Shown: one piece after another, positions 33,883 to 44,946 of the stretch | Numbering within the stretch: the first letter of the stretch is position 1 | How the letters are laid out: every line of letters begins with the position of its first letter | Origin: an uncultured Gammaproteobacteria bacterium | Lineage (GTDB): Bacteria > Patescibacteriota > Microgenomatia > UBA12405 | Reading direction: 5' to 3' | DNA: 51,227 bases | NCBI GenBank assembly: GCA_964549165.1 | Contig: CAZJUH010000001.1 | Coordinates: forward strand, 140,566 to 191,792 | Notes under the pieces: model-generated | Database searches by the model: none | Told to the model about the DNA's origin: nothing | Seen by the model: the letters and a program-made list of their open reading frames with translations, nothing else | Made by a program: the position numbers and the translations under genes

Positions 33883-35425
33883 AAAGGAGGTGATCCATCC
33901 GCACCTTCCAGTACGGATACCTTGTTACGACTTAACCCTCATCGCTGGATTTACCTTAGTCCCGATAAATCGGGATATTGGGTACCCCCAACTTTGCTGA
34001 TTTGACGGGCAGTGTGTGCAAGAGGCGAGAACGTATTCACCGCACGCTGCTGATGTGCGATTACTACCAATTCCGGGTTCATGCAGGCGAGTTTCAGCCT
34101 GCAATCCCAACTGAGGGCTAGTTTAGGGATTAGCTCCACCTTGCGGTCTTGCAACCCTCTGTTATAGCCCATTGTAGGATGTGTGTAGCCCTGGATATAA
34201 GCATCATGATGACTTGACGTCGTCCCCTCCTTCCTCCTAACAAAATAATGCTAGGCAGTCTTCTGTGACACAATAACACAGAACGGGGGTTGCGCTCGTT
34301 ACCTCACTTAAGAGAACAACTCACGTCACGAGCTGACGATAGCCATGCAACAGCTGTGTACCACCCTCAAAGGATGTCCCGATTTCTCGGGATTTGCAGG
34401 TACATTTCAAACCCAGGTAAGGTTCATCGCTTTGTATCGAATTGAACCACATGCTCCACTGGTTGTGCGCCTCCCCGCCAATTCGTTTGAGTTTCGGCCT
34501 TGCGGCTATACTCCCCAGGCGATCCGTTTAACGCGTTTGCTAACATCCCTCCCTAATAAATTAAAGAAGAACTAACGGACAATGTTTACGGCTAGGACTA
34601 CTCAGGTCTCTAATCTGATTTGCTACCCTAGCTTTCGTCTCTGAACGTCAGTATGTACCTAGTTACCCGCCTTCGCGCTTGGTGTTCTTTTTAGTATCCA
34701 CGGATTTAACCCCTACACTAAAAATTCCAGTAACCCCGATACCACTCTAGTCTTTTAGTATCTTGCCCCTTTCTCCGATTGAGTCGGAGTCTTTGAAACA
34801 AGACTTAAAAAACCGTCTACAGACCCTTTACGCCCAATAAATCCGAGTAACGCTCGTAGCCTACGTATTACCGCGACTGCTGGCACGTAGTTAGTAGCTA
34901 CTTATTCTAGTGGCCTTCATGGCCGCTAAAAAGGAGTTTACAACCCTAGGGTCTTCATCCTCCACGCGGTGTCGCTGCGTCAGACTTTCGTCCATTGCGC
35001 AAAATTCCTAACTGCTGCCACCCGTAGGTGTATGGGCCGTGTCTCAGTCCCATTGTGCCGGACTCTCCGCTAAGAGCCGGTAACCGTCATTGCCTTGGTA
35101 AGCCGTTACCTTACCAACTAGCTGGTAGTAAATAGGCCGTTTTCGTAGTGACTTGCGTCTTTCACCCGTAGGCGTATGGGAAATTACCCCCTCTTTCGAG
35201 GAGCTATGTCCCGCTTCGAAGTACGTTCCTATTTTATACTCACCCGTTTGCCACTACCCTGCGCTCCGCACTGCGTTTGAGCTTCGGAATAGCAGGCTAT
35301 CCATATTTAAGGATCGCATGCGACTCCGTAGTTCCACCGCAAAGTGGAACGAAGGATCGTTCGACTTGCATGTCTTAGGCACACCGCCAGCGTTCACCCT
35401 GAGCCACGATCAAACTCTTAGTACA
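33883..35425 (-). rRNA. rrs: 16S rRNA, stand-alone, with enlarged V1 region
   Basis: AGAGTTTGATCGTGGCTCAG near the 5' end, GTGCCAGCAGTCGCGGTAA, AAGTCGTAACAAGG and 3' GGATCACCTCCTTT; ends approximate. Confidence 0.98.
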
Positions 35426-35590: not shown

Positions 35591-36640
35591 TTATAAATTT
35601 TCGATTTGTGCAGTAGGCAAGTTAATTCTTTCGGTTGAAGTAAAAATTGTCTGATACTTTTGGCAAATCTCAACTACAATCTGGCGATGATTTTGGTCAA
35701 GTTCCGAAAAAATATCGTCAAGAAGCAGTATTGGTTTCTCGTTATATTGCTGCTCTAAATAATTTATTTGAGCGAGTCTCAAGGCTAAAACTGCCATTCT
35801 CTGCTGTCCCCTTGAGCCCCAAAAAGCTAAATTTTTGTCTTCAGTTTCAAACTCATCAAAATCAACTGAAAAATCATCTAAATGTGGACCACATTTACTG
35901 TGTCCGGCCGCCAGTTCCAAGGGATATAGTTTTTGTAACTTATCTTCACTAATTGTTGACGCTCCGTAGTTAATTGATAATTTGCTTATTTCTTTATCCT
36001 CATGCTCTGAAAAAAATAAATTTGCCGACTTGACCCAGTTAAAACGGAAACTTTGGATAATTTCCGCGTTTTTTATGAGTGACTGGTCCCAATAAAATAA
36101 TTCCGTTTTTTGAGCTTTACCACTGGCAATTATATCTAAAAGTTCGTTCTTATTTTTTAGAGCCTTATGATATTGAGATAAGGCCGAGGCGTAACGCCAT
36201 TCTATATTGACAAATATTCCATCTAAAAAGTCTCTTCTCCTCCCTGGTGAGCCGTTAATAAGTCTCAGGTCTTCCGGCTCAAAAACAACTATTTTAACTT
36301 TTCCCCAATATTTTGCCCTTGTTTTAATTACTTTATCAATCAAAAAACGTCGTTTTAAACTACCATTTTCTTCTCGCCAAAGCTGAACCTCAACTTCATT
36401 TTCTCCTTGTTTACCAACAACTTTAGCCCGAATGCTACTAATTTTTTCACCCCATTTTATCAGCTGTCCAGAGCCTGACAACCTGAAACTTTTTCCTGAC
36501 GACAAAAAATAAATCGCTTCCAGTAAATTGCTTTTTCCACTGCCGTTTTTACCTAAAATTAAATTGGCTTTTTTATCAAATTCCACCAGTTTTCTGTCGT
36601 ATGACCGGAAATTCTGTAACAAAACCTTGCTAATATACAT
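35591..36640 (-). CDS. recF: DNA replication and repair protein RecF
   Basis: LQNFRSY, GKNGSGKSNLLEAI Walker A, GSPGRRRDFLD, GPHLDD, SRGQQR and PILLLDDIFSELD motifs. Confidence 0.95.
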   Translation of the reverse strand: MYISKVLLQNFRSYDRKLVEFDKKANLILGKNGSGKSNLLEAIYFLSSGKSFRLSGSGQLIKWGEKISSIRAKVVGKQGENEVEVQLWREENGSLKRRFLIDKVIKTRAKYWGKVKIVVFEPEDLRLINGSPGRRRDFLDGIFVNIEWRYASALSQYHKALKNKNELLDIIASGKAQKTELFYWDQSLIKNAEIIQSFRFNWVKSANLFFSEHEDKEISKLSINYGASTISEDKLQKLYPLELAAGHSKCGPHLDDFSVDFDEFETEDKNLAFWGSRGQQRMAVLALRLAQINYLEQQYNEKPILLLDDIFSELDQNHRQIVVEICQKYQTIFTSTERINLPTAQIENL

Positions 36641-36905
36641 CTTCTGCCTATTATAACCGATTCTTACCCAAAATTCTTTATGTCCAGAGACTGTCGGTAG
36701 GTTGGAACCAATTCTTTGCTAACCTAATTTCCATCTACGAGACTCTTAAACCTATTATACCGGAAGAAAAATTAGCCTTGAGTTATATATAATAAGAATT
36801 ACCATTGGTGGAGTAGAACAATAGTAATTTCATATTTCGGGGTAATTGGTCTATATATTAACAGCAACAAACTGAATCAAATATGTGCCTATTTTGTCAT
36901 GTAGG

Positions 36906-36934
36906 TTGACAGATGGTTTCATGGTTGCTACTAT
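36906..36934 (+). promoter_or_regulatory. Sigma70 promoter of the retron operon
   Basis: TTGACA (36906-36911), 17-nt spacer, TG-C-TACTAT (36929-36934). Confidence 0.8.
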
Positions 36935-36940
36935 GATTAT

Positions 36941-37234
36941 GGAGACTCTACGAGTCGCACATTAAAATCCTTTAACACGGCAGATATTCCAACTTTCTAA
37001 ATGGTGCCTTTGGCACCGCAGGGGTTTATCCCCTGCTTTCTCCGTCGGGCTGCATCGTTACGATGATGAGTTAACGATTACTGTTACAGTAATCAGTTAT
37101 TCTTTACCTTACACGATGGCAGAGCGCTCCGCGCGAAAAAGTAATTAAGGGTTTAGGTTCAGTTTCCTTCCTATCAAGGCTAGGTCTGCTGATGGCACGG
37201 TGCAGCCATTTTTAGGGTTTGCACAGTTAAAGGA
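36941..37234 (+). ncRNA. Candidate retron ncRNA (msr-msd)
   Basis: 9-bp terminal inverted repeat TCCTTTAAC/GTTAAAGGA (36968-36976/37226-37234); hairpins at 37003-37017 and 37018-37036; 11-bp stem 37048-37058/37197-37207; directly upstream of a retron-type RT operon. Confidence 0.65.
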
Positions 37235-37245
37235 GGTGAGTTCAA

Positions 37246-37443
37246 TTGAATCACTTTAATTTTAAATGTGTCTCAACTTTGATAAATTCAAAGGTGAGAA
37301 ACGGGAAACTGAATTTAGATCAGGCTAAAGTCATAATCGGCCATGCAAAAGAAATCAAGCATGCTTTATCAACCAAGGATAACCAAAAGTTGGTCAAGGC
37401 AGTTGATAGATTCTGCAAATCGATATTTGAGTCCGATAGTTGA
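37246..37443 (+). CDS. Small helical protein, candidate retron effector
   Basis: TTG start 7 nt after a strong AGGAGGTG SD; amphipathic helical pattern; first ORF of the operon. Confidence 0.65.
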   Translation: MNHFNFKCVSTLINSKVRNGKLNLDQAKVIIGHAKEIKHALSTKDNQKLVKAVDRFCKSIFESDS

Positions 37444-37505
37444 TCCCCTTAATTTCTTTTTGTAAAAACCATTGGGTAAATGACTTTTACAAAAGGTAAA
37501 GATGT

Positions 37506-37802
37506 ATGAATTATTCCAAGACAATAAAAATTATCAGAGCTGCTATAGGCCTGTCTCAACAAGACTTCGCGTCACTAACTGAGATTGATCCTAGTTTAGT
37601 GTCCAGAATTGAATCCGGCCAAAGGTCACTGTCGGTGACCAATTTAAAAAAAATTTCAACAAAACTGTCAATTCCAGAGAGTTTGATGAAACTTCTTTCG
37701 AGTGACGAGACCGAACTAAAAGGGTTGACTAAAGACGAATACCAAAAAATGGCCGAAAGTTTACTTTCGCTTTTAATAAAAAAACAAAATGGGAGAAAGT
37801 GA
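37506..37802 (+). CDS. XRE-family helix-turn-helix protein
   Basis: IRAAIGLSQQDFA...IDPSLVSRIESGQR pattern; overlaps the RT start by 14 nt. Confidence 0.9.
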   Translation: MNYSKTIKIIRAAIGLSQQDFASLTEIDPSLVSRIESGQRSLSVTNLKKISTKLSIPESLMKLLSSDETELKGLTKDEYQKMAESLLSLLIKKQNGRK

Positions 37803-38685
37803 TTCCAGTGTGAAAAATGTTTTGTCTACGAGAAAACTCGCGAGTATTTTAAAGATCAACGTCGACGAGCTTAGAGCAGTTTCTGAAAATGCAAGCTCTT
37901 ATTACCGGCCGTTTATTAAGAAACTGCCAAAGCCTAGAGAAATTGATAACCCAACCGGTAGACTAAAGATCATCCAAAAGGCAATTGATGATAAGTTGCT
38001 AAAAAAAGTAGAGTTGCCGGAAACAGTTTTGGGAGGAGTTCCCGGGAAGTCGGTAAAGGACAATGCCATGTTTCATCTTGGTAAACCTGTGGTAGTGACC
38101 GTCGATTTGAAGAAGTGTTTCCCAAACACAAAAGACATTTCAGTATTCAAGTTATTTCGTAACTATTTCGGATATTCGACTGTAAATTCTTTATTACTGA
38201 TGAAACTAACAACGTTTAACGATCATGTGCCCCAAGGTTCACCGTGTAGCTCGTCACTGGTTAATCTTTGTCTCCTGGCTTTACATGAAGAGTTGCAAGC
38301 CTTCTCTGGGAAATATGGCTTCATGTGTACCGTTTGGGTAGACGATATAACAATATCCGGCGAAGGCGCTGAAAAACAGATTTCGGATGTGATTAGAATA
38401 ATAAAAAGGCATAAATACAACACAAGGTGTAAAAAAATTAAAGTAATGAGAGGTAGTGGAAGACAAGAGGTCACCGGAATAACTGTAAATAATTTAGTGT
38501 CTGTTCCAAAGAAGAAAATATCGGAAATAAAGAAGATTATCCATGACATTAGGGTAAAAAACCTTAACATGAATTCAAAAGAATATATTATGTTAAAAGG
38601 AAAAATGGGATTTGTAGGATATGTTAATCCTAAACAGTTCAATACATTAAATAAGTTTTTGCTCAAATGTGGGATAAAAGTCTAA
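37789..38685 (+). CDS. Retron-type reverse transcriptase
   Basis: REIDNP..RLKIIQ, region X NAMFH (NAxxH), DLKKCFP, PQGSPCS..LVN, WVDD, region Y VTG; 298 aa with no maturase or endonuclease domain. Confidence 0.92.
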   Translation: MGESDSSVKNVLSTRKLASILKINVDELRAVSENASSYYRPFIKKLPKPREIDNPTGRLKIIQKAIDDKLLKKVELPETVLGGVPGKSVKDNAMFHLGKPVVVTVDLKKCFPNTKDISVFKLFRNYFGYSTVNSLLLMKLTTFNDHVPQGSPCSSSLVNLCLLALHEELQAFSGKYGFMCTVWVDDITISGEGAEKQISDVIRIIKRHKYNTRCKKIKVMRGSGRQEVTGITVNNLVSVPKKKISEIKKIIHDIRVKNLNMNSKEYIMLKGKMGFVGYVNPKQFNTLNKFLLKCGIKV

Positions 38686-38712
38686 TAATTTTTGGGTGTA
38701 AAATTACCTAGT

Positions 38713-39387
38713 ATGGAAAACCCCGGAGAAAAAAGGTACGAAAAACAAATCATGTGTAAGGAATGCCAGCATCCAACATGGCATCGCGTTCTTAATGAAG
38801 CGAAAGGAGGTTGGGACGATGATGAATCAGGGATATGGGAGTCTAAAACTTTTTATTCTTTGCAGTGCTTGGGTTGCGATAATGTTTGCCTCGTCGTCCA
38901 CAGCATGTTTAGCGAAGATATTGGTGATGACGGGAATCCTGAATTAAACATTGCAATTTATCCCTCACCATATAAAAGTGACAGGGAACCCATCGAGAGA
39001 TTGCACCGTGTACCTAAAAATATCGGTTCAGTATATGAAGAAACAATAAAGGCTTTTAACGCTCATCTCATAATCTTAGCAGCCATCGGTGTCAGGTCAA
39101 CGATAGAGGCGATAGCAATTGACAAGGCTATTACCGCTAGAGGAATCAAAACTAAAATAGAAGCGATGAAAGGACAAGGAATTATTACCGAGGATGGCGC
39201 AAAATTATTACTTCTCGTAAAAGATATCGGGAATCTGGCTGCTCACGAGATCAAGAAACATCACCATGACGATCTCTCTTTGTGTCTTGACATCATTGAG
39301 GGTGTACTTATGGAACAGTATGTACTTCCAGAAGAAGCAAAGCGCACTAGGGAAATAATTGATGGTAGATGGGAAAGAGCGAGTTAG
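38713..39387 (+). CDS. Zinc-ribbon plus DUF4145 (HEPN-like) protein
   Basis: CKEC and CLGC pairs; YEE...A....AA...R..IE and GN.AAH motifs; start ATG 38713 (track starts at TTG 38692). Confidence 0.75.
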   Translation: MENPGEKRYEKQIMCKECQHPTWHRVLNEAKGGWDDDESGIWESKTFYSLQCLGCDNVCLVVHSMFSEDIGDDGNPELNIAIYPSPYKSDREPIERLHRVPKNIGSVYEETIKAFNAHLIILAAIGVRSTIEAIAIDKAITARGIKTKIEAMKGQGIITEDGAKLLLLVKDIGNLAAHEIKKHHHDDLSLCLDIIEGVLMEQYVLPEEAKRTREIIDGRWERAS

Positions 39388-39397
39388 AAAAAACTAT

Positions 39398-40231
39398 TTA
39401 CCTCGGAAATGTTGGTGGATTTGATACTTGGACAACTGGTTCGGTCTTGAGCATTTGCTGTAGTTCTGGATAGTCTAAGATTTCCGTTACAAGTGAGGTA
39501 GATTGAACAATACCAAGGCCAGCATTCTCCTGAAATTGGATCCTGGATTGTCCCGTTCTAGTGCTAACAGCATCCTCAATGTAGTTGAGATTGTCGCTAA
39601 TTATACCCAATAACTTTAATCCACGTCCGGAGCCAATTGAAAACGAAGATTGGCTGAATGAAGCGATGGTGGGTCTGTAAAAAACCGGACTACCACTACT
39701 GCCCGGGTAAACATTTGCGTCTATTAGGAATGTCTTATTATTCAATTTTGCCGAAACTAATCCGGCCCTAATCAATGGCGTTGATTTGTTCTCATTTGAA
39801 ACCCCGAGACCCAATGGGTATCCTAGAAAAAATACATCTTCGCCCAATGGTAGATTTTCAAAATTCTCAAATAAGTTCTGGCTCACTAACTTGATATCGT
39901 CTTCATTTTGCTTGATTGCGATAGGTGTTACAGCAATATCTACATTTTGATCGTGATGAAAAACCCATTTTAAGCCGAACTCGCGGTGTACTTGTTCAAT
40001 ACTTCTTTGCTCTTTTCCCCCATCAAGTCTATTTAAGATTACGTTTAGTCCTTTAAACTCTTCTTTTGTGTACGGATTAACCACAATGTGTCGACATGTT
40101 ACAAGAACAAAGTTTTCTTTGTAGTTGATCAAAACACCGGTACCGTGGGGTTGTAGCACACTATTATTGTTTGGTAGTTCAAACAACACTACTGTCTTGA
40201 GAAACTCTTCGTTTAACCAATTTGCAATCAT
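39398..40231 (-). CDS. Trypsin-like serine protease
   Basis: VTCRHIV (His), VDIAV (Asp), FLGYP and PGSSGSPVF (Ser) motifs. Confidence 0.85.
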   Translation of the reverse strand: MIANWLNEEFLKTVVLFELPNNNSVLQPHGTGVLINYKENFVLVTCRHIVVNPYTKEEFKGLNVILNRLDGGKEQRSIEQVHREFGLKWVFHHDQNVDIAVTPIAIKQNEDDIKLVSQNLFENFENLPLGEDVFFLGYPLGLGVSNENKSTPLIRAGLVSAKLNNKTFLIDANVYPGSSGSPVFYRPTIASFSQSSFSIGSGRGLKLLGIISDNLNYIEDAVSTRTGQSRIQFQENAGLGIVQSTSLVTEILDYPELQQMLKTEPVVQVSNPPTFPR

Positions 40232-40442
40232 AGTCTATTTTACCCTTATTTGACCCTGTGTCGACCTGTGTGGCATTTTTATATCTATAACCCAAAACTA
40301 CATAAAGCTACAAACTTTGTGCCTGACAGAGGCAAACCCCATCCGTGTTATAAGATTTTCACCATATCGACAAGAACATGAGAAAACTAGAGATTTTGTG
40401 CGTAAGGTCTTAAAAGACAGAAATACTATAAGTTAACCTTAA

Positions 40443-41619: not shown

Positions 41620-41723
41620 AATTTGTTGATTTATCAAAGTGTTTTTTAGGCACAACACCGTGCTTAAATCTGAACTATATTTCCTGTTCGAATTATGGCA
41701 TACATTCCATAATTTGCCAACTA

Positions 41724-41933
41724 ATGGCAAACATATACGAGAAATTTGGACTTAATGTAAAGAGGTACAGAAAAACAACTGGTATGACTCAAGAAAAACT
41801 GGCTGAGGCAGCAAAGGTAGATCCAAAGTCGATTATTTCTATTGAGAATGGAACCCGGAACCCAACATTGAGGACCATATATAGGCTAGCCAAGGCATTT
41901 AAAATAAGCATAGGCGAGTTGGTGAAATTCTGA
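41724..41933 (+). CDS. XRE-family transcriptional regulator
   Basis: FGLNVKRYR...GMTQEKLAE......ISIENG.RNPTL motif. Confidence 0.9.
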   Translation: MANIYEKFGLNVKRYRKTTGMTQEKLAEAAKVDPKSIISIENGTRNPTLRTIYRLAKAFKISIGELVKF

Positions 41934-41998
41934 ATCTTTAGGTATCTATCTGGCTCATATAGCATCCATAAACCTACTTGAATTTATCGTAACTAATG

Positions 41999-42017
41999 GA
42001 GTAATATAATGTTACTC
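41999..42017. promoter_or_regulatory. Operator-like palindrome GAGTAA-N7-TTACTC enclosing TATAAT
   Basis: Read directly; upstream of the small-ORF/recombinase operon. Confidence 0.45.
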
Positions 42018-42126
42018 GACTGAGAGCACAAAAAAGTACACACCGCATATTTGCCTTAAAACGGCAACGAATAATTATCTTTCGGGCATATTCGTTGGCC
42101 GCTTTTTTTTGGCCTAGAGGCAAAAT

Positions 42127-42309
42127 ATGCTCAGCGTTAGTAGAGCAAAGAAGATTCTTGGAAAAACAGCAGAGCTGTACACTGATGAACAGATTGAGGC
42201 GACATTGAAGCAAATCAGAGGGTTAACAGATGCTTGCGTGGACATGATCGACCATAAGATTAAGGTGGAAGGACCGGGATTTCTGGATATTATTTCAAAA
42301 AGGCAGTAG
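42127..42309 (+). CDS. Small protein upstream of the recombinase
   Basis: 60 aa ending 1 nt before the recombinase start; MLSVSRAKKILG...TDEQIE helical pattern. Confidence 0.6.
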   Translation: MLSVSRAKKILGKTAELYTDEQIEATLKQIRGLTDACVDMIDHKIKVEGPGFLDIISKRQ

Positions 42310-42310
42310 A

Positions 42311-44020
42311 ATGAACATGATGGTAAGAGCCGTAATACTAGCTAGGGTATCTGATCAGAAACAAAAAATATACGGTGGTGATTCACTTGATGACCAGATG
42401 GCGCAGTGTCAAAAGTTTATTGACAATCAAGGGTGGACGCTTGCATGTCGCCCCTTTGTCCTGATTGAAAGTGGTAGAAAAGGTGAAAGAAAATACTTTT
42501 GGGAAGTTTACGATTATTGTAAATCTAAAAGTAAAACCAGCGAAAAAATTGATTATCTTGTGGTGTTGAATATCGGAAGATTTACCAGAGGTGGAGGTGT
42601 TGAATACATCAGACTCAAAAAGGAATATGAAGCTATTGGCGTACAAATTACTGATGTTTTTAATACTGTTGGACATAAGGTCAATACCCTTGAACAGTAC
42701 GGTTTTACTTATGATTGGAGTGTTTATTCACCAACGGAAACTGCTGAAATTCATGAGGCAGATCAAAAATGTGGCCAGGTCAGAGACATATTAACGCAGA
42801 CAGTAAGTGGCTGTATTAGGAATATCAACAAAGGTTACTGGAATGGCCCCCCACCCTTTGGCCTATTGGGTAAAAAAGTTGAGACAGTTGAAGATGGAAC
42901 ACGAAATGTGCTGGCCGAAAATACACTTGAGAGTCAATTTATAAGAAGGATTTATGAGTTGAGAGCGAGCGGTACAACTGATCCAGAAATCGCTGAAAAA
43001 ATAAACTTGATGGGTTTTAAGACAAGGTTGATGGTGAAACGAGATAGTAGAACTAGAATAAAAATTGGCACCAAAGGTGGTGTCAAACTTACAGTCAAAA
43101 AAATTCAGGAGTGGGTGGTCAATCCAATTTATTGCGGGGTGATTGTAGCAAAATGGACGAAATATCAACCAATAAAAGCATCTATGTTTTCTGGGTTGGT
43201 TGATATTGAAACTTTTAACGCTGCAAACAAGGGTAAAATTTACATCATCAAAAATGGCGATGGAAGTTTTTACATAAAGCACAACATAAAGTGGGCAAAT
43301 ATAAATCAGCCGGATAAAAGAATGAGGAATAACCCTGCCTTTCCATTCAAAAGTGTACTCTTGTGCCCAACGTGCCACAAAGAAGTAAAGGCGAGTTCTT
43401 CAAGAAGTAGATCTGGGAAGAAACATCCATATTATCACTGTGATAGAGGGCATAAACGATGGTATAAGAAGCCAGAAGAAGTACACCAAGCCTTGATAGA
43501 GAACTTAAAAAAGCTTAAATTTTCAGATTCATACGCCAAATTATTTGAAGCATCATTTATTGAGTCTTGGAAAGAGAAAATGCAAAAAGCTATGATTGAC
43601 AGCCAGGAGGCAGAAAGTTATGTCTCAGAGCTCTTGGTAAAGCGTAAAAGTAAGCTAGAAGCGATAGAAATGGCTACAAGTCCGGTAGTCAAAAAGGCCT
43701 TCGAAGAAGAGTTTGAAGATATAGATAATCAGATTAAGAAGGCAAGAGGTCAGAGAAACGTTATCGAGGATAAAGAGGTGGACGTGAAGCTTGCATTGAG
43801 GTATGGGACATATTTAATGGAACACCCAGGAGAATTACTGCTAGGTAAGGAGAATATCAATAATAGAAGATACCTTTTTGGACTGGTCTTTGAAGAGCTT
43901 CCTACTTATGACGAATTAGTTAGTGGAACCACAAAATTAAGGCCTATCTTCCAATTAAAGGGAAACGAAAACGAGTCAAAATTACAGTTAGTCCAGTGGG
44001 CAGGAGTTGAACCTGCATAA
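42311..44020 (+). CDS. Large serine recombinase
   Basis: ARVS catalytic motif, ESG, GPPPFG recombinase domain, C..C...YYHC zinc ribbon, C-terminal coiled coil. Confidence 0.93.
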   Translation: MNMMVRAVILARVSDQKQKIYGGDSLDDQMAQCQKFIDNQGWTLACRPFVLIESGRKGERKYFWEVYDYCKSKSKTSEKIDYLVVLNIGRFTRGGGVEYIRLKKEYEAIGVQITDVFNTVGHKVNTLEQYGFTYDWSVYSPTETAEIHEADQKCGQVRDILTQTVSGCIRNINKGYWNGPPPFGLLGKKVETVEDGTRNVLAENTLESQFIRRIYELRASGTTDPEIAEKINLMGFKTRLMVKRDSRTRIKIGTKGGVKLTVKKIQEWVVNPIYCGVIVAKWTKYQPIKASMFSGLVDIETFNAANKGKIYIIKNGDGSFYIKHNIKWANINQPDKRMRNNPAFPFKSVLLCPTCHKEVKASSSRSRSGKKHPYYHCDRGHKRWYKKPEEVHQALIENLKKLKFSDSYAKLFEASFIESWKEKMQKAMIDSQEAESYVSELLVKRKSKLEAIEMATSPVVKKAFEEEFEDIDNQIKKARGQRNVIEDKEVDVKLALRYGTYLMEHPGELLLGKENINNRRYLFGLVFEELPTYDELVSGTTKLRPIFQLKGNENESKLQLVQWAGVEPA

Positions 44021-44063
44021 AACGGTTTTACAGACCGTTGCCTAACCGCCCGGCACCCACTGG
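43992..44063 (-). tRNA. tRNA-Tyr(GTA) with C1:G72, A73 and short variable loop; CCA not encoded
   Basis: CCAGTGG/CCACTGG acceptor, GCC/GGC D-stem, ACGGT-CTGTAAA-ACCGT anticodon arm, GCAGG-TTCAACT-CCTGC T-arm. Confidence 0.9.
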
Positions 44064-44178
44064 TTTTATACAGAAAGGATTATATCAGAAAAACTAAATT
44101 CCCCTCTGCTCAGCAGTAGCTGATCCACGAGAGTGGAAAAGAGGGGTTAGAGGAGATTGAAAACTGGTAAAATAGACT

Positions 44179-44946
44179 ATGAATCTTCGTCTCATCTCCT
44201 GGAACCTTGCCGGTATGCGTGCTGCTGTCAAAAAAGGCCTTTGGGACTTTGTTAAAAAAGATAACGCCGATATTTATTGCTTTCAGGAAGTAAAAGCTAA
44301 GGCCGATCAGGTTCCGCTTTTGGAATGTCCCAATTCTTATCATAAATTTTGGAATCCCGCTGTCAAAGCTGGTTACTCCGGTGTGGCCACCTTCACCAAA
44401 ATAGAACCAAAATCAGTCATTATCGGCGACCGCGACAATGATTGGGACGACGAGGGTAGGGTGATTATAACCAAATTCGATGAATTTACTCTTCTCAATG
44501 TTTATTTCCCAAATGGCCAGCGCGACCTTGCTCGACTCGATTTTAAAATGAAATTTTACGATTATTTTTTAAATTATATTGACAAGCTTCGGGACAGGGG
44601 AGAGAAAGTAATTTTCTGTGGCGATGTCAATACTGCTCACACCGAAATTGATTTAGCTAGGCCAAAAGACAACATTAAAACTTCTGGCTTCTTACCAATA
44701 GAACGCGCTTGGATGGACAAATTAGTTGCTCATAATTGGACTGATACATACCGCCTCATTAATGATAACAAAGTAGAGTATTCTTGGTGGTCCCAGCGCT
44801 CTGGCGCCCGCCCCAAAAACATTGGCTGGCGCATTGATTATTTCTTTATTGATAAAAAATTAGAATCTAAAATTACTGACGCCTTTATTCTTACTGATGT
44901 TATGGGCAGCGACCATTGTCCTATCGGAATCGAAATTAAACTATAA
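44179..44946 (+). CDS. xth: Exodeoxyribonuclease III / AP endonuclease
   Basis: SWN.AG.RA, FQEVK, GYSGVA, EGR, NVYFPNG, GDVNTAH, GWRIDY and SDHCP motifs. Confidence 0.96.
   Translation: MNLRLISWNLAGMRAAVKKGLWDFVKKDNADIYCFQEVKAKADQVPLLECPNSYHKFWNPAVKAGYSGVATFTKIEPKSVIIGDRDNDWDDEGRVIITKFDEFTLLNVYFPNGQRDLARLDFKMKFYDYFLNYIDKLRDRGEKVIFCGDVNTAHTEIDLARPKDNIKTSGFLPIERAWMDKLVAHNWTDTYRLINDNKVEYSWWSQRSGARPKNIGWRIDYFFIDKKLESKITDAFILTDVMGSDHCPIGIEIKL

Follow-up and report, generated by a model that had tools for sequence, protein, structure and literature searches.

The question raised by positions 36895-38685 of the window, the 51,227-nt stretch of DNA analysed here, is whether they hold a complete retron and, if so, whether it is one of a new kind. 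This segment contains a promoter, a ~565-nt structured RNA with an embedded 65-aa ORF (SP), a gene encoding an XRE-type helix-turn-helix (HTH) protein and an overlapping retron reverse transcriptase (RT) gene, all on the forward (+) strand, as are all features described below. The promoter, a ~305-nt leader, the 65-aa ORF, the HTH and RT genes and the gene that follows them had been recognized in an initial annotation, and each was found again at the same position. The segment appears to be an intact type VI retron of ordinary appearance, and so of an anti-phage kind that has already been described; it is a good new example of a known system rather than a new kind of system. We put the probability at roughly 0.88 that the locus is a complete type VI retron, a three-gene abortive-infection system in which the RNA and the toxin gene are one molecule.

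The RT (37789-38685; 298 aa; Pfam RVT_1, 1.6e-14) has RT_VI as its best PADLOC profile (2e-68, 228.7 bits, 275 of 279 profile positions), with RT_III-A next at 183.3 bits, and the best 25 of the 43 PADLOC profiles that match are all retron RT profiles. It also matches the NCBIfam model retron_St85_RT (1.5e-44), below that family's cutoff, and its sequence matches in the PDB are retron RTs only (Ec86, Ec67, Kva2, Ec78). The motifs NAMFH (aa 92-96), PQG (148-150), WVDD (183-186) and VTG (228-230) are present; across 15 aligned RTs, NAxxH, PQG, xVDD and VTG are conserved, with the N, A, H, D, D, V, T and G residues invariant or nearly so, and the RT dN/dS is 0.07-0.08. Overlapping the RT gene by 14 nt is the gene for the HTH protein (37506-37802; 98 aa; Cro/C1-XRE type; Pfam HTH_3, 6e-12), a presumed antitoxin/repressor, which has HTH_VI as its best PADLOC profile (2.5e-18) and a dN/dS of 0.11. 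The protein has the features by which a type VI HTH is recognized, being of the Cro/C1 type, within the 91-110 aa size of cluster 2_1 and encoded by a gene that overlaps the RT. With RT_VI and HTH_VI as the top profiles, the earlier assignment to type VI of Mestre et al. 2020 is borne out, an assignment that for the RT is a profile comparison and not a tree with a curated set of type VI RTs. The covariation of the RNA and the match to solved structures of retron RTs exclusively provide further backing. In addition, the RT groups by profile with retron RTs and not with non-retron classes, and its homologs retain both the leader and the small ORF, two points on which the initial annotation had let its reading depend. 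WVDD, noted there as possibly new, was considered as a special feature and dropped, as the same box is present in 34 fetched related loci, distant ones included; it appears to be a common variant among related RTs, with the proportions of W and Y biased by a metagenome scan pattern that allowed only these two residues at the first position.

The SP-HTH-RT layout is common to more than 10 related metagenomic lineages (loci designated by L numbers below), is retained in relatives with RT identities of 93% to as low as 33%, and extends to type VI loci already known from proteobacteria and phage. An HTH gene is located directly upstream of the RT gene in all 9 loci with RT identities of at least 33%, as compared with 10 of 57 below this value. 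A scan of GTDB genomes with the RT gave 78 pattern matches, none of which was confirmed, and so yielded no named genome with a close relative of this RT. No match to the window RT closer than P0014 (31%) has an NCBI source tag, and the clade may therefore be missing from curated sets. The retron occupies a variable defence island, flanked by recF and tRNA-Tyr, in a small Microgenomatia-like (CPR) genome, and a CPR host is supported by the adjoining RecF, for which the closest named proteins are from Candidatus Shapirobacteria (59-61%) and the 'Patescibacteria group'. Carriage by a Patescibacterium had been regarded as a likely novelty, but there is a precedent in the type VI retron of Candidatus Levybacteria, catalogued as Mestre-729 and tested by Khan et al. 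2025 according to the account in 10.64898/2026.04.27.721009; both hosts are of the CPR/Microgenomates type.

Transcription would initiate from a sigma-70-type promoter (TTGACA-17 nt-TG-n-TACTAT; 36906-36934), in which TTGACA (36906-36911) and TACTAT (36929-36934, after a TG) are separated by a 17-nt spacer. The 10 of 12 consensus matches are alone not significant, with 15 such sites present and 11.6 expected in a 4-kb scan; the position of the promoter is, in addition, kept in the relatives aligned with the window (L001, L005, L007). A palindrome, TGTCA-N7-TGACA (36895-36911), extends over the -35 box and is a candidate operator for the HTH protein. This sequence has one match in the 51-kb window where 0.03 would be expected, and its GTCA-N7-TGAC core recurs ahead of the RNA element, in the corresponding position, in L001-L015, L017, L018, L021-L024 and L027. 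Its position suggests that the HTH protein may also repress its own promoter. As a possible HTH operator, the conserved palindrome is a small point, possibly previously unreported, that raises the testable question of whether the HTH protein functions also as a transcriptional autorepressor.

Downstream of the promoter, the hybrid RNA (hyRNA; 36941-37505, ends predicted), a structured non-coding domain plus the embedded SP coding sequence, is presumably made as a single transcript. This 565-nt stretch has a minimum free energy (MFE) of -175.8 kcal/mol, as compared with -135.3 +/- 5.7 for shuffled sequences (z = -7.05; none of 100 shuffles as stable), and the ~305-nt leader, from ~36941 up to the SP start at 37246, has a z of -2.98 when folded alone. 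In a structure-blind alignment of 7 lineages, 88.3% of the cells for 69 consensus pairs are paired, as compared with 38-52% in slid controls, and 36 pairs have changes on both sides, as compared with 4-15 in the slid controls and a number not reached by any of 500 shuffles. Folding 10 lineages separately resulted in the same 5' architecture. The MAFFT alignment of this 5' domain (A5, 10 lineages) mis-registers the hairpins of L010, L013 and L020, and the case for the 5' domain therefore rests on these independent folds, without a formal pair count. The non-coding blocks are conserved more strongly than the SP coding sequence. A search of Rfam over the leader, with gathering or relaxed thresholds, identified no known RNA family, the best matches being noise with E values of at least 0.1.

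The RNA begins with a stem-loop, GACUC-UAC-GAGUC (36944-36956), that folds independently in 10 lineages with differing stem sequences and is followed directly by a conserved single-stranded GC(A/U)C(A/U)UUAAAA motif (36957-36967). The adjacent a1-like arm, UCCUUUAAC (36968-36976), is complementary to GUUAAAGGA (37226-37234), which covers the start of the SP Shine-Dalgarno (SD) sequence. In each lineage, the 5' arm matches that lineage's own SD region, with uneven support for the stem, which in L005, L013 and L014 is no more stable as a duplex than shuffled sequences. G36980, just 3' of this arm, is invariant in alignment A3 and could, as a guess, be the priming G. Two abutting hairpins, SLa (37003-37017) and SLb (37018-37036), predicted separately in 10 of 10 lineages and with compensatory changes in their stems, are msr-like candidates for recognition by the RT. 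They are followed by a variable central stem region (37037-37135), including a perfect hairpin at 37076-37094, that by its position is the candidate msd, the template for msDNA, although where the msd begins and ends can only be guessed. This is the least conserved stretch, with 48% identity to L005 as compared with 65-78% in the flanks, and its length varies from 100 to 128 nt across the lineages, with a 23-nt insertion in L007. IR1 (37136-37151) pairs with IR2 (37446-37461), located immediately 3' of the SP stop codon, over 16 nt that are 94% complementary. In this helix (helix 3), 5 of 8 pairs have changed on both sides, and an equivalent pairing around SP is present in 15 lineages, including those of Psychrobacter plasmid pA22P5 and Yersinia phage 56.17. 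In helix 4, GGUUCAGUUUCCU (37156-37168) pairs with GGGAAACUGAAUU (37303-37315) inside the SP codons for N-G-K-L-N, and its 13 pairs, 6 with a compensatory change, are formed in 98.8% of cells. A terminal hairpin (helix 9; 37453-37499), with 21-nt arms that are 81% complementary, is located just upstream of the HTH ribosome-binding site (RBS) and is retained in 7 of 7 lineages.

SP (37246-37443; 65 aa) is the presumed toxin/effector. The ORF has a strong SD sequence and starts with a TTG located 7 nt downstream of AAGGAGGTG, a start validated by L005 and L007, in which the homologous codon is ATG. SP homologs are encoded at the same position in at least 11 lineages. The protein is predicted to form three helices (residues 6-18, 24-43 and 46-61; pLDDT 89.7, AF2 from the single sequence). 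The SP dN/dS is 0.30-0.42 and its synonymous divergence is depressed (pS 0.156, versus 0.37 in the RT), which would be expected of an mRNA that doubles as a structural RNA. No sequence similarity was detectable to the two reference SPs compared, those of Psychrobacter and Yersinia, and the long hydrophobic C-terminal tail of these proteins is missing, so that the designation of SP as a toxin is one of position and fold class only. Single-sequence searching is useless for this family; a search of 1.84 billion representatives returned two true relatives, with the remainder being spurious, long repetitive proteins. Four SP clusters, 2075, 2760, 3272 and 3897, were defined for type VI by Mestre et al. 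2020, and the window SP may instead be grouped with the SPs of the 'Large' lineage, which are unclustered.

Based on this anatomy, pairing with the 5' arm over 9 bp (36968-76/37226-34) could occlude the SP RBS, and two long-range helices, IR1/IR2 and 37156-68/37303-15, would hold the SP coding region against the non-coding domain. By analogy with Retron-Vpa2 and Retron-Sen3, SP would be a toxin held in check in the uninfected cell, silenced by folding of the RNA, neutralised by the HTH protein, or both. Binding of the HTH protein to the RT and RNA would also restrain reverse transcription, and the protein might additionally repress its own promoter through the palindrome that overlaps the -35 box. 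A phage that interferes with DNA-end processing or recombination in the host would then let the RT copy the central stem into single-stranded DNA, and this would free SP translation or activity, arresting growth of the infected cell. A CPR host may have no equivalent of the RecBCD or Red-type triggers found in the model systems.

Of the other explanations for the locus, the one with the least to recommend it is that the RT is of a different defence class (DRT/UG-Abi, group II intron-like or DGR) and merely resembles those of retrons. There are weak secondary matches to group II intron maturase (1.8e-5) and Drt2 (1.5e-4) models, but with only retron RTs among the 25 best profiles, RT_VI 45 bits ahead, the retron-specific NAxxH and VTG motifs present and a layout that matches known type VI loci, this is extremely improbable. 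Scarcely more credible is a decaying or catalytically altered retron, in which W in place of Y in the YxDD box would abolish normal polymerase activity. Vpa2 and Sen3 do have YADD and YVDD, respectively, at this site, but the W is kept in 34 of the fetched loci, including lineages that are only ~31-34% identical, neither aspartate nor any other RT motif varies, the dN/dS is 0.07 and all three ORFs are intact in every lineage. SP and the HTH protein might, alternatively, be mainly an addiction (toxin-antitoxin) module that stabilises a mobile island, rather than a phage sensor, with the RT and RNA as accessories. As described in 10.64898/2026.04.27.721009, the Sen3 HTH-SP pair is a toxin-antitoxin module that is independent of the RT and ncRNA. 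A large serine recombinase is encoded within a few kb of the retron in the window, in L002/L003 and in L011, and a small recombinase-family gene is located near the Psychrobacter plasmid retron. The link between the retron and a recombinase island, proposed in the initial annotation, is plausible; a 17-nt inverted repeat around the recombinase segment of the window is absent from every fetched locus. L005, however, has the retron and no recombinase, the low dN/dS of the RT (0.07-0.08) and extensive covariation of the RNA would be unexpected if only a toxin-antitoxin pair mattered, and both of the type VI retrons that have been studied, Vpa2 and Sen3, are reported to defend against phage. We consider a primary role in addiction improbable.

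The gene that follows the RT gene (38713-39387) encodes a protein with a Cys4 zinc ribbon and a DUF4145 (HEPN-like) domain (Pfam DUF4145, 1.5e-14), 224 aa from an ATG or 231 aa from a TTG at 38692, that is probably not part of the retron. Residues C15, C18, C52 and C55 are invariant in 22 homologs, and His178, a GN motif and R128 are also invariant. An AF2 model has a pLDDT of 86, with the zinc-ribbon part forming a four-stranded beta domain (pLDDT ~90), and the credible Foldseek matches to this model are HepT/HEPN toxins (6m6w, 7ae6, 5yep; probability 0.95-1.0, E 0.02-0.1), HEPN matches with weak E values among which no RAZR entry was returned. Searches with the protein sequence gave no PDB chain at E <= 1 and no PADLOC family at E <= 0.01. 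RAZR (PD-T7-4), a ring-activated zinc-finger RNase that is a self-sufficient, single-gene defence (Nature 2026, PMC13017515), has the same architecture of an N-terminal Cys4 zinc ribbon and a C-terminal DUF4145 HEPN-like domain in ~220 aa, and both are single genes found in defence contexts. The window protein shares this architecture, and no sequence match in these searches places it in the RAZR family. The catalytic residues of RAZR-Ec, R146 and H154, are eight apart (PMC13017515), whereas the position eight residues before His178 is a Lys in the window protein and most homologs, and an Arg in only three; unlike RAZR, the DUF4145 gene directly follows a retron RT. A recent transfer of this gene was suspected from its 92% protein identity to L005, as compared with 71% for the RT, and was dropped, as its pS of 0.62 is close to that of recF and RT (0.73). 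With comparable synonymous divergence, the difference in identity reflects mainly stronger purifying selection.

The DUF4145 gene, listed in the initial annotation among the possibly new features, might make this one four-gene system in which the HEPN RNase is a second effector, expressed from the retron promoter under HTH/RT/msDNA control. It is on the same strand, 6 nt (TTG) or 27 nt (ATG) past the RT stop codon with no terminator-like site between, the window and L005 (RT 71% identical) have an identical junction, and in L001 the spacer and ~25 nt from the start of the gene persist. Furthermore, the gene has a dN/dS of 0.034, indicating strong purifying selection, and a synonymous divergence comparable to that of recF, and has therefore long been co-inherited with the retron. 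However, it is present in only two retron lineages, being missing from the sisters L001 and L007 and from L010, L013, L014, L016 and L020-L027, homologs with 53-60% identity have no RT beside them in any of the 3 contexts sampled, and the same two-domain architecture is self-sufficient in RAZR. A four-gene system is therefore unlikely; the gene behaves as an optional neighbour and most likely represents an independent, RAZR-like defence gene within this island. Somewhat less doubtful, but still doubtful, is a joint reading of the locus as a member of an uncatalogued type VI sub-lineage, comprising SP-HTH-RT loci found so far only in metagenomes, with an extra, transcriptional layer of control through HTH binding to the palindrome at the -35 box, coupling in some members to a co-transcribed zinc-ribbon-HEPN RNase as a second effector, and the strongly covarying N-G-K-L-N helix as a physical switch opened by msDNA.

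Read as a type VI retron, the locus bears on a current disagreement. No retrons are less canonical than those of type VI, and two preprints of 2025-2026 give conflicting accounts of their control, with translational derepression by msDNA described for Vpa2 and post-translational control by HTH-SP for Sen3 (10.1101/2025.10.22.683967; 10.64898/2026.04.27.721009). A compact, strongly covarying family of homologs from distant hosts provides independent comparative support for the 'hybrid RNA' architecture, including the 5' stem-loop, the sequestered RBS, IR1-IR2 and selection for RNA structure within the codons of the toxin itself, and offers clean helices for mutation. Three over-readings are also corrected, in that CPR carriage is not new, WVDD is common and the DUF4145 gene most likely stands apart from the retron.

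Known type VI members are described as making msDNA only when derepressed and, in the census of Khan et al. as cited in 10.64898/2026.04.27.721009, six of six type VI retrons, one of them CPR, had no detectable ssDNA in E. coli. In Psychrobacter plasmid pA22P5 and Yersinia phage vB_YenM_56.17, the small ORF, HTH and RT are ordered and spaced as in the window, with an IR1/IR2-type pairing around the small ORF, although their RTs are only ~29-30% identical to that of the window and their SP families and promoter palindromes differ. [quoted passage not shown] 2025, bioRxiv 10.1101/2025.10.22.683967), has the SP-HTH-RT operon and a structured 'hybrid RNA', abundant in Vpa2 and predicted in the window, with msr-msd-like stems plus the SP coding sequence. 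In both, the SP RBS is buried in structure (predicted for the window), inverted repeats connect the 3' end with the non-coding arm and SP is small and helical (55 aa in Vpa2, 65 aa in the window). They differ in that the Vpa2 RT is only distantly related and has YADD rather than WVDD, the hyRNA is ~470 nt rather than the ~565 nt predicted here, and the host of Vpa2 is a gammaproteobacterium whereas the window is from a Patescibacterium. The type VI Retron-Sen3, of the cl2075 lineage (Garcia-Rodriguez et al. 2026, bioRxiv 10.64898/2026.04.27.721009), has a 79-aa SP and a YVDD box in place of the 65 aa and WVDD of the window, and the window SP has neither sequence similarity to the cl2075-like Yersinia SP nor the long amphipathic C-terminal helix. 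Nevertheless, in Sen3, and by prediction in the window, the RBS is sequestered in a basal stem, and IR1-IR2 lie either side of an SP coding region that is under RNA structural selection. The HTH RBS is likewise predicted to pair near the 5' stem-loop, in the window in the full-length MFE structure. Both have a long internal stem with a non-conserved centre, and the variable central stem of the window is analogous to the msd stem of Vpa2 and the variable SL3 of Sen3.

By its sequence, the element in the window is a real, intact and selectively maintained type VI retron. The stretch that holds it, together with a downstream gene encoding a DUF4145 domain, is flanked on one side by recF (35591-36640, minus strand) and on the other by a convergent protease gene. 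The initial annotation accurately described the promoter, small ORF, HTH and reverse transcriptase (RT) genes, and all are present at 36906-38685 on the plus strand. There is a sigma-70-type promoter (TTGACA at 36906-36911, a spacing of 17 nt, and TG-n-TACTAT ending at 36934), a 65-aa ORF encoding the small protein, SP (37246-37443), with a TTG start preceded by a strong Shine-Dalgarno (SD) sequence, AAGGAGGTG, a 98-aa HTH gene (37506-37802; Pfam HTH_3, 6e-12) and a 298-aa RT gene (37789-38685; Pfam RVT_1, 1.6e-14) whose first 14 nt lie within the HTH gene. The RT has the motifs NAMFH (residues 92-96), PQG (148-150), WVDD (183-186) and VTG (228-230). A match to the promoter consensus is not significant alone, as a local scan found 15 sites versus 11.6 expected; the promoter position is conserved among relatives.

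The initial annotation proposed that grouping with non-retron classes would count against a retron RT, and no such grouping was found. The best PADLOC profile is RT_VI (2e-68, 228.7 bits, nearly full length), with the next profile 45 bits lower, and HTH_VI is the best profile for the HTH protein (2.5e-18). The closest NCBIfam models are retron RTs, with group II intron and Drt2 models matching only at 1e-5 to 1e-4, and all 12 PDB sequence matches are retron RTs, Ec86 being the best (4e-23). Among 66 metagenomic RT relatives with enough upstream sequence, a homologous HTH gene is directly upstream in 9 of the 9 with RT identity of at least 33% and in 10 of the 57 below 33%. Because of these matches and counts, the RT is placed among the retrons, more precisely in type VI, by profile and relative comparison rather than by a reference-set tree.

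Sixteen RT relatives were obtained by a word-indexed search, and their contigs and a metagenome scan were inspected. The order SP (62-76 aa)-HTH-RT is kept in lineages whose RT identity ranges from 93% to 33% and is also that of annotated type VI-style loci in Psychrobacter plasmid pA22P5 and Yersinia phage vB_YenM_56.17. Homologs therefore retain the small ORF and, as judged from RNA folds shared by 10 lineages, the leader, both of which the initial annotation had expected of a genuine system. The SPs of the wider clade are mutually alignable, with the common pattern ...L.H.L..KD.K.V.KA.D+F.K..; the Psychrobacter and Yersinia SPs do not align to them. A confident AF2 single-sequence model of SP (pLDDT 89.7) has three helices, the fold class that has been described for SPs of type VI. 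SP has roughly half the synonymous divergence (pS) of the neighbouring RT gene (0.156 versus 0.37 and 0.53 versus 0.73 against the related metagenomic loci L001 and L005, respectively), as expected if the SP codons also serve RNA structure, and in the same comparisons SP dN/dS (0.30-0.42) is higher than that of the RT. Low pS combined with higher dN/dS marks a coding sequence that doubles as structural RNA.

The 565-nt stretch that begins at the predicted transcript start and reaches the HTH start codon folds far more stably than shuffled sequences (z = -7.05), and the SP coding sequence is less conserved than the non-coding blocks when four lineages are aligned. Given seven lineages aligned by MAFFT without regard to structure, RNAalifold predicted 69 pairs, with 88.3% of cells paired versus 38-52% with slid partners and 36 pairs changed on both sides versus 4-15; none of 500 shuffles equalled the observed values. 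The best helices include the inverted repeats flanking SP, IR1 (37136-37151) with IR2 (37446-37461, directly after the SP stop codon), a 13-bp helix of 37156-37168 with SP codons at 37303-37315 (98.8% paired, compensatory changes in six pairs), a hairpin preceding the SD, two helices internal to the SP coding sequence and, ahead of the HTH RBS, a terminal hairpin. IR1/IR2-type pairing around SP is present in 15 lineages, including the Psychrobacter and Yersinia phage loci. When 10 lineages were folded separately, all had a 5′ stem-loop followed by a GCUCUUUAAAA-like single strand, and two abutting hairpins with differing stem sequences; the segment from these hairpins to IR1 is the least conserved stretch and is variable in length. 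Lineage by lineage, the 5′ arm just after the GCUCUUUAAAA-like motif is complementary to its own SD region (9 bp in the window, 36968-36976 with 37226-37234), with a pairing energy that in three lineages is not better than that of shuffles.

A TGTCA-N7-TGACA palindrome (36895-36911) overlaps the -35 box. The window has a single copy, versus 0.03 expected; most related loci, down to an RT identity of 33%, carry it in the corresponding position, and it is a reasonable candidate for an HTH operator. In one lineage, a second GTCA-N7-TGAC copy (L010 8356-8370, L011 6204-6218, L012 4408-4422) falls within the small ORF that immediately precedes the serine recombinase gene, a hint that the retron and the recombinase module are regulated together.

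Two segments of the window are also found in L001 and L002: the retron (36680-38738, 91%) and an HTH-recombinase-tRNA-Tyr segment (41642-44063, 79%), with different cargo between them. In L005, the retron and DUF4145 gene run straight into tRNA-Tyr without a recombinase, and the 4.6-kb segment 39390-43990 is absent. Of the recombinase island initially annotated, what stands is that the retron occupies a variable hotspot adjoining a serine-recombinase module; mobilisation by that recombinase is plausible. The 3′ end of the recombinase ORF (42311-44020) overlaps the opposite-strand tRNA-Tyr (43991-44063) by 30 nt. The protease gene (39398-40231, minus strand; trypsin-like, Pfam Trypsin_2, 2.4e-12) matches the PADLOC candidate defence family PDC-S45 (2.1e-26) and gives a weak match to the protease domain found in RT-protease fusions of type XI retrons. 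It and the DUF4145 gene are convergent, so that three consecutive genes here are of defence type. A perfect 17-nt inverted repeat (40228-40244, TCATAGTCTATTTTACC; 44166-44182, GGTAAAATAGACTATGA), with a chance expectation roughly estimated at ~0.002 in this 7.9-kb region, has arms 3.9 kb apart, each covering an outward-facing start codon, that of the protease (minus strand) and that of an Exo_endo_phos-like ORF (44179-44946, plus strand). The segment within, with genes for a membrane protein, a CAP-domain protein, an HTH protein, the large serine recombinase and tRNA-Tyr, looks invertible or recombinase-bounded.

The protein encoded at 38713-39387 has a Cys4 zinc ribbon and a HEPN-like DUF4145 domain, the same architecture as RAZR/PD-T7-4, a stand-alone defence RNase (PMC13017515). 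As it has no match in PADLOC or PDB sequences, the resemblance is one of architecture rather than of demonstrated family membership. The junction with the RT gene is identical in the window and L005 and a stub is left in L001; the gene is absent from all other retron lineages compared, and its homologs stand alone in 3 of 3 contexts, so that its listing as a possible novelty of the retron was not upheld. Recent transfer was considered and rejected, the high identity to L005 being due to strong constraint. The family (the window protein and homologs P0018-P0038) is invariant for a GN...H motif and, separately, for an Arg (R128); most members have Lys rather than Arg eight residues before the His. 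With one named member from candidate division WWE3, it may be a CPR-enriched RAZR-like family.

The CPR host was correctly called, the closest named RecF relatives (~60%) being from Candidatus Shapirobacteria and 'Patescibacteria group'. An 80% identical RecF, P0059, is labelled 'Candidatus Methanoperedens sp.' by NCBI; because every other named relative is from Patescibacteria, the contig was probably mis-binned into an archaeal MAG. The 16S rRNA gene (33883-35425, minus strand) has no long insertions (1543 nt versus a 1533-nt model) and reads GTGCCAGCAGTCGCGGTAA around 34868-34886, where the usual 515F primer site calls for GCCGCGG; such a T-for-C mismatch could lower amplicon recovery of the lineage. 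Two features thought possibly new have precedents. WVDD is present in 34 fetched loci, distant ones included, its tryptophan is kept in the window's clade and the RT is under strong purifying selection; the motif is a common variant rather than a defect. A type VI retron from Candidatus Levybacteria was catalogued and tested earlier (bioRxiv 10.64898/2026.04.27.721009).

Two type VI retrons have been characterised. [quoted passage not shown] SP acts as the toxin, the HTH protein and RT are complexed with the RNA, and msDNA from a long stem builds up only on triggering and derepresses SP translation (bioRxiv 10.1101/2025.10.22.683967). Sen3 RNA has a conserved 5′ stem-loop, an RBS within the basal stem, a variable stem SL3, IR1-IR2 and covarying positions within the SP coding sequence; there, HTH serves as a post-translational antitoxin and inhibition of RecBCD is the trigger (bioRxiv 10.64898/2026.04.27.721009). 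An operator or palindrome is mentioned in neither preprint. Carrying these mechanisms over, we infer that SP in the window would be controlled by translational derepression, as in Vpa2, or by a post-translational HTH antitoxin, as in Sen3. The type VI assignment of the initial annotation is borne out by the RT_VI and HTH_VI profiles, the SP-HTH-RT layout and the RNA architecture. The window RNA has predicted RBS pairing and inverted repeats around SP in common with Vpa2, and the 5′ stem-loop, variable segment, IR1-IR2 and covariation inside SP codons in common with Sen3; this RNA and gene picture is the published type VI picture, and the element is therefore filed as a type VI retron.
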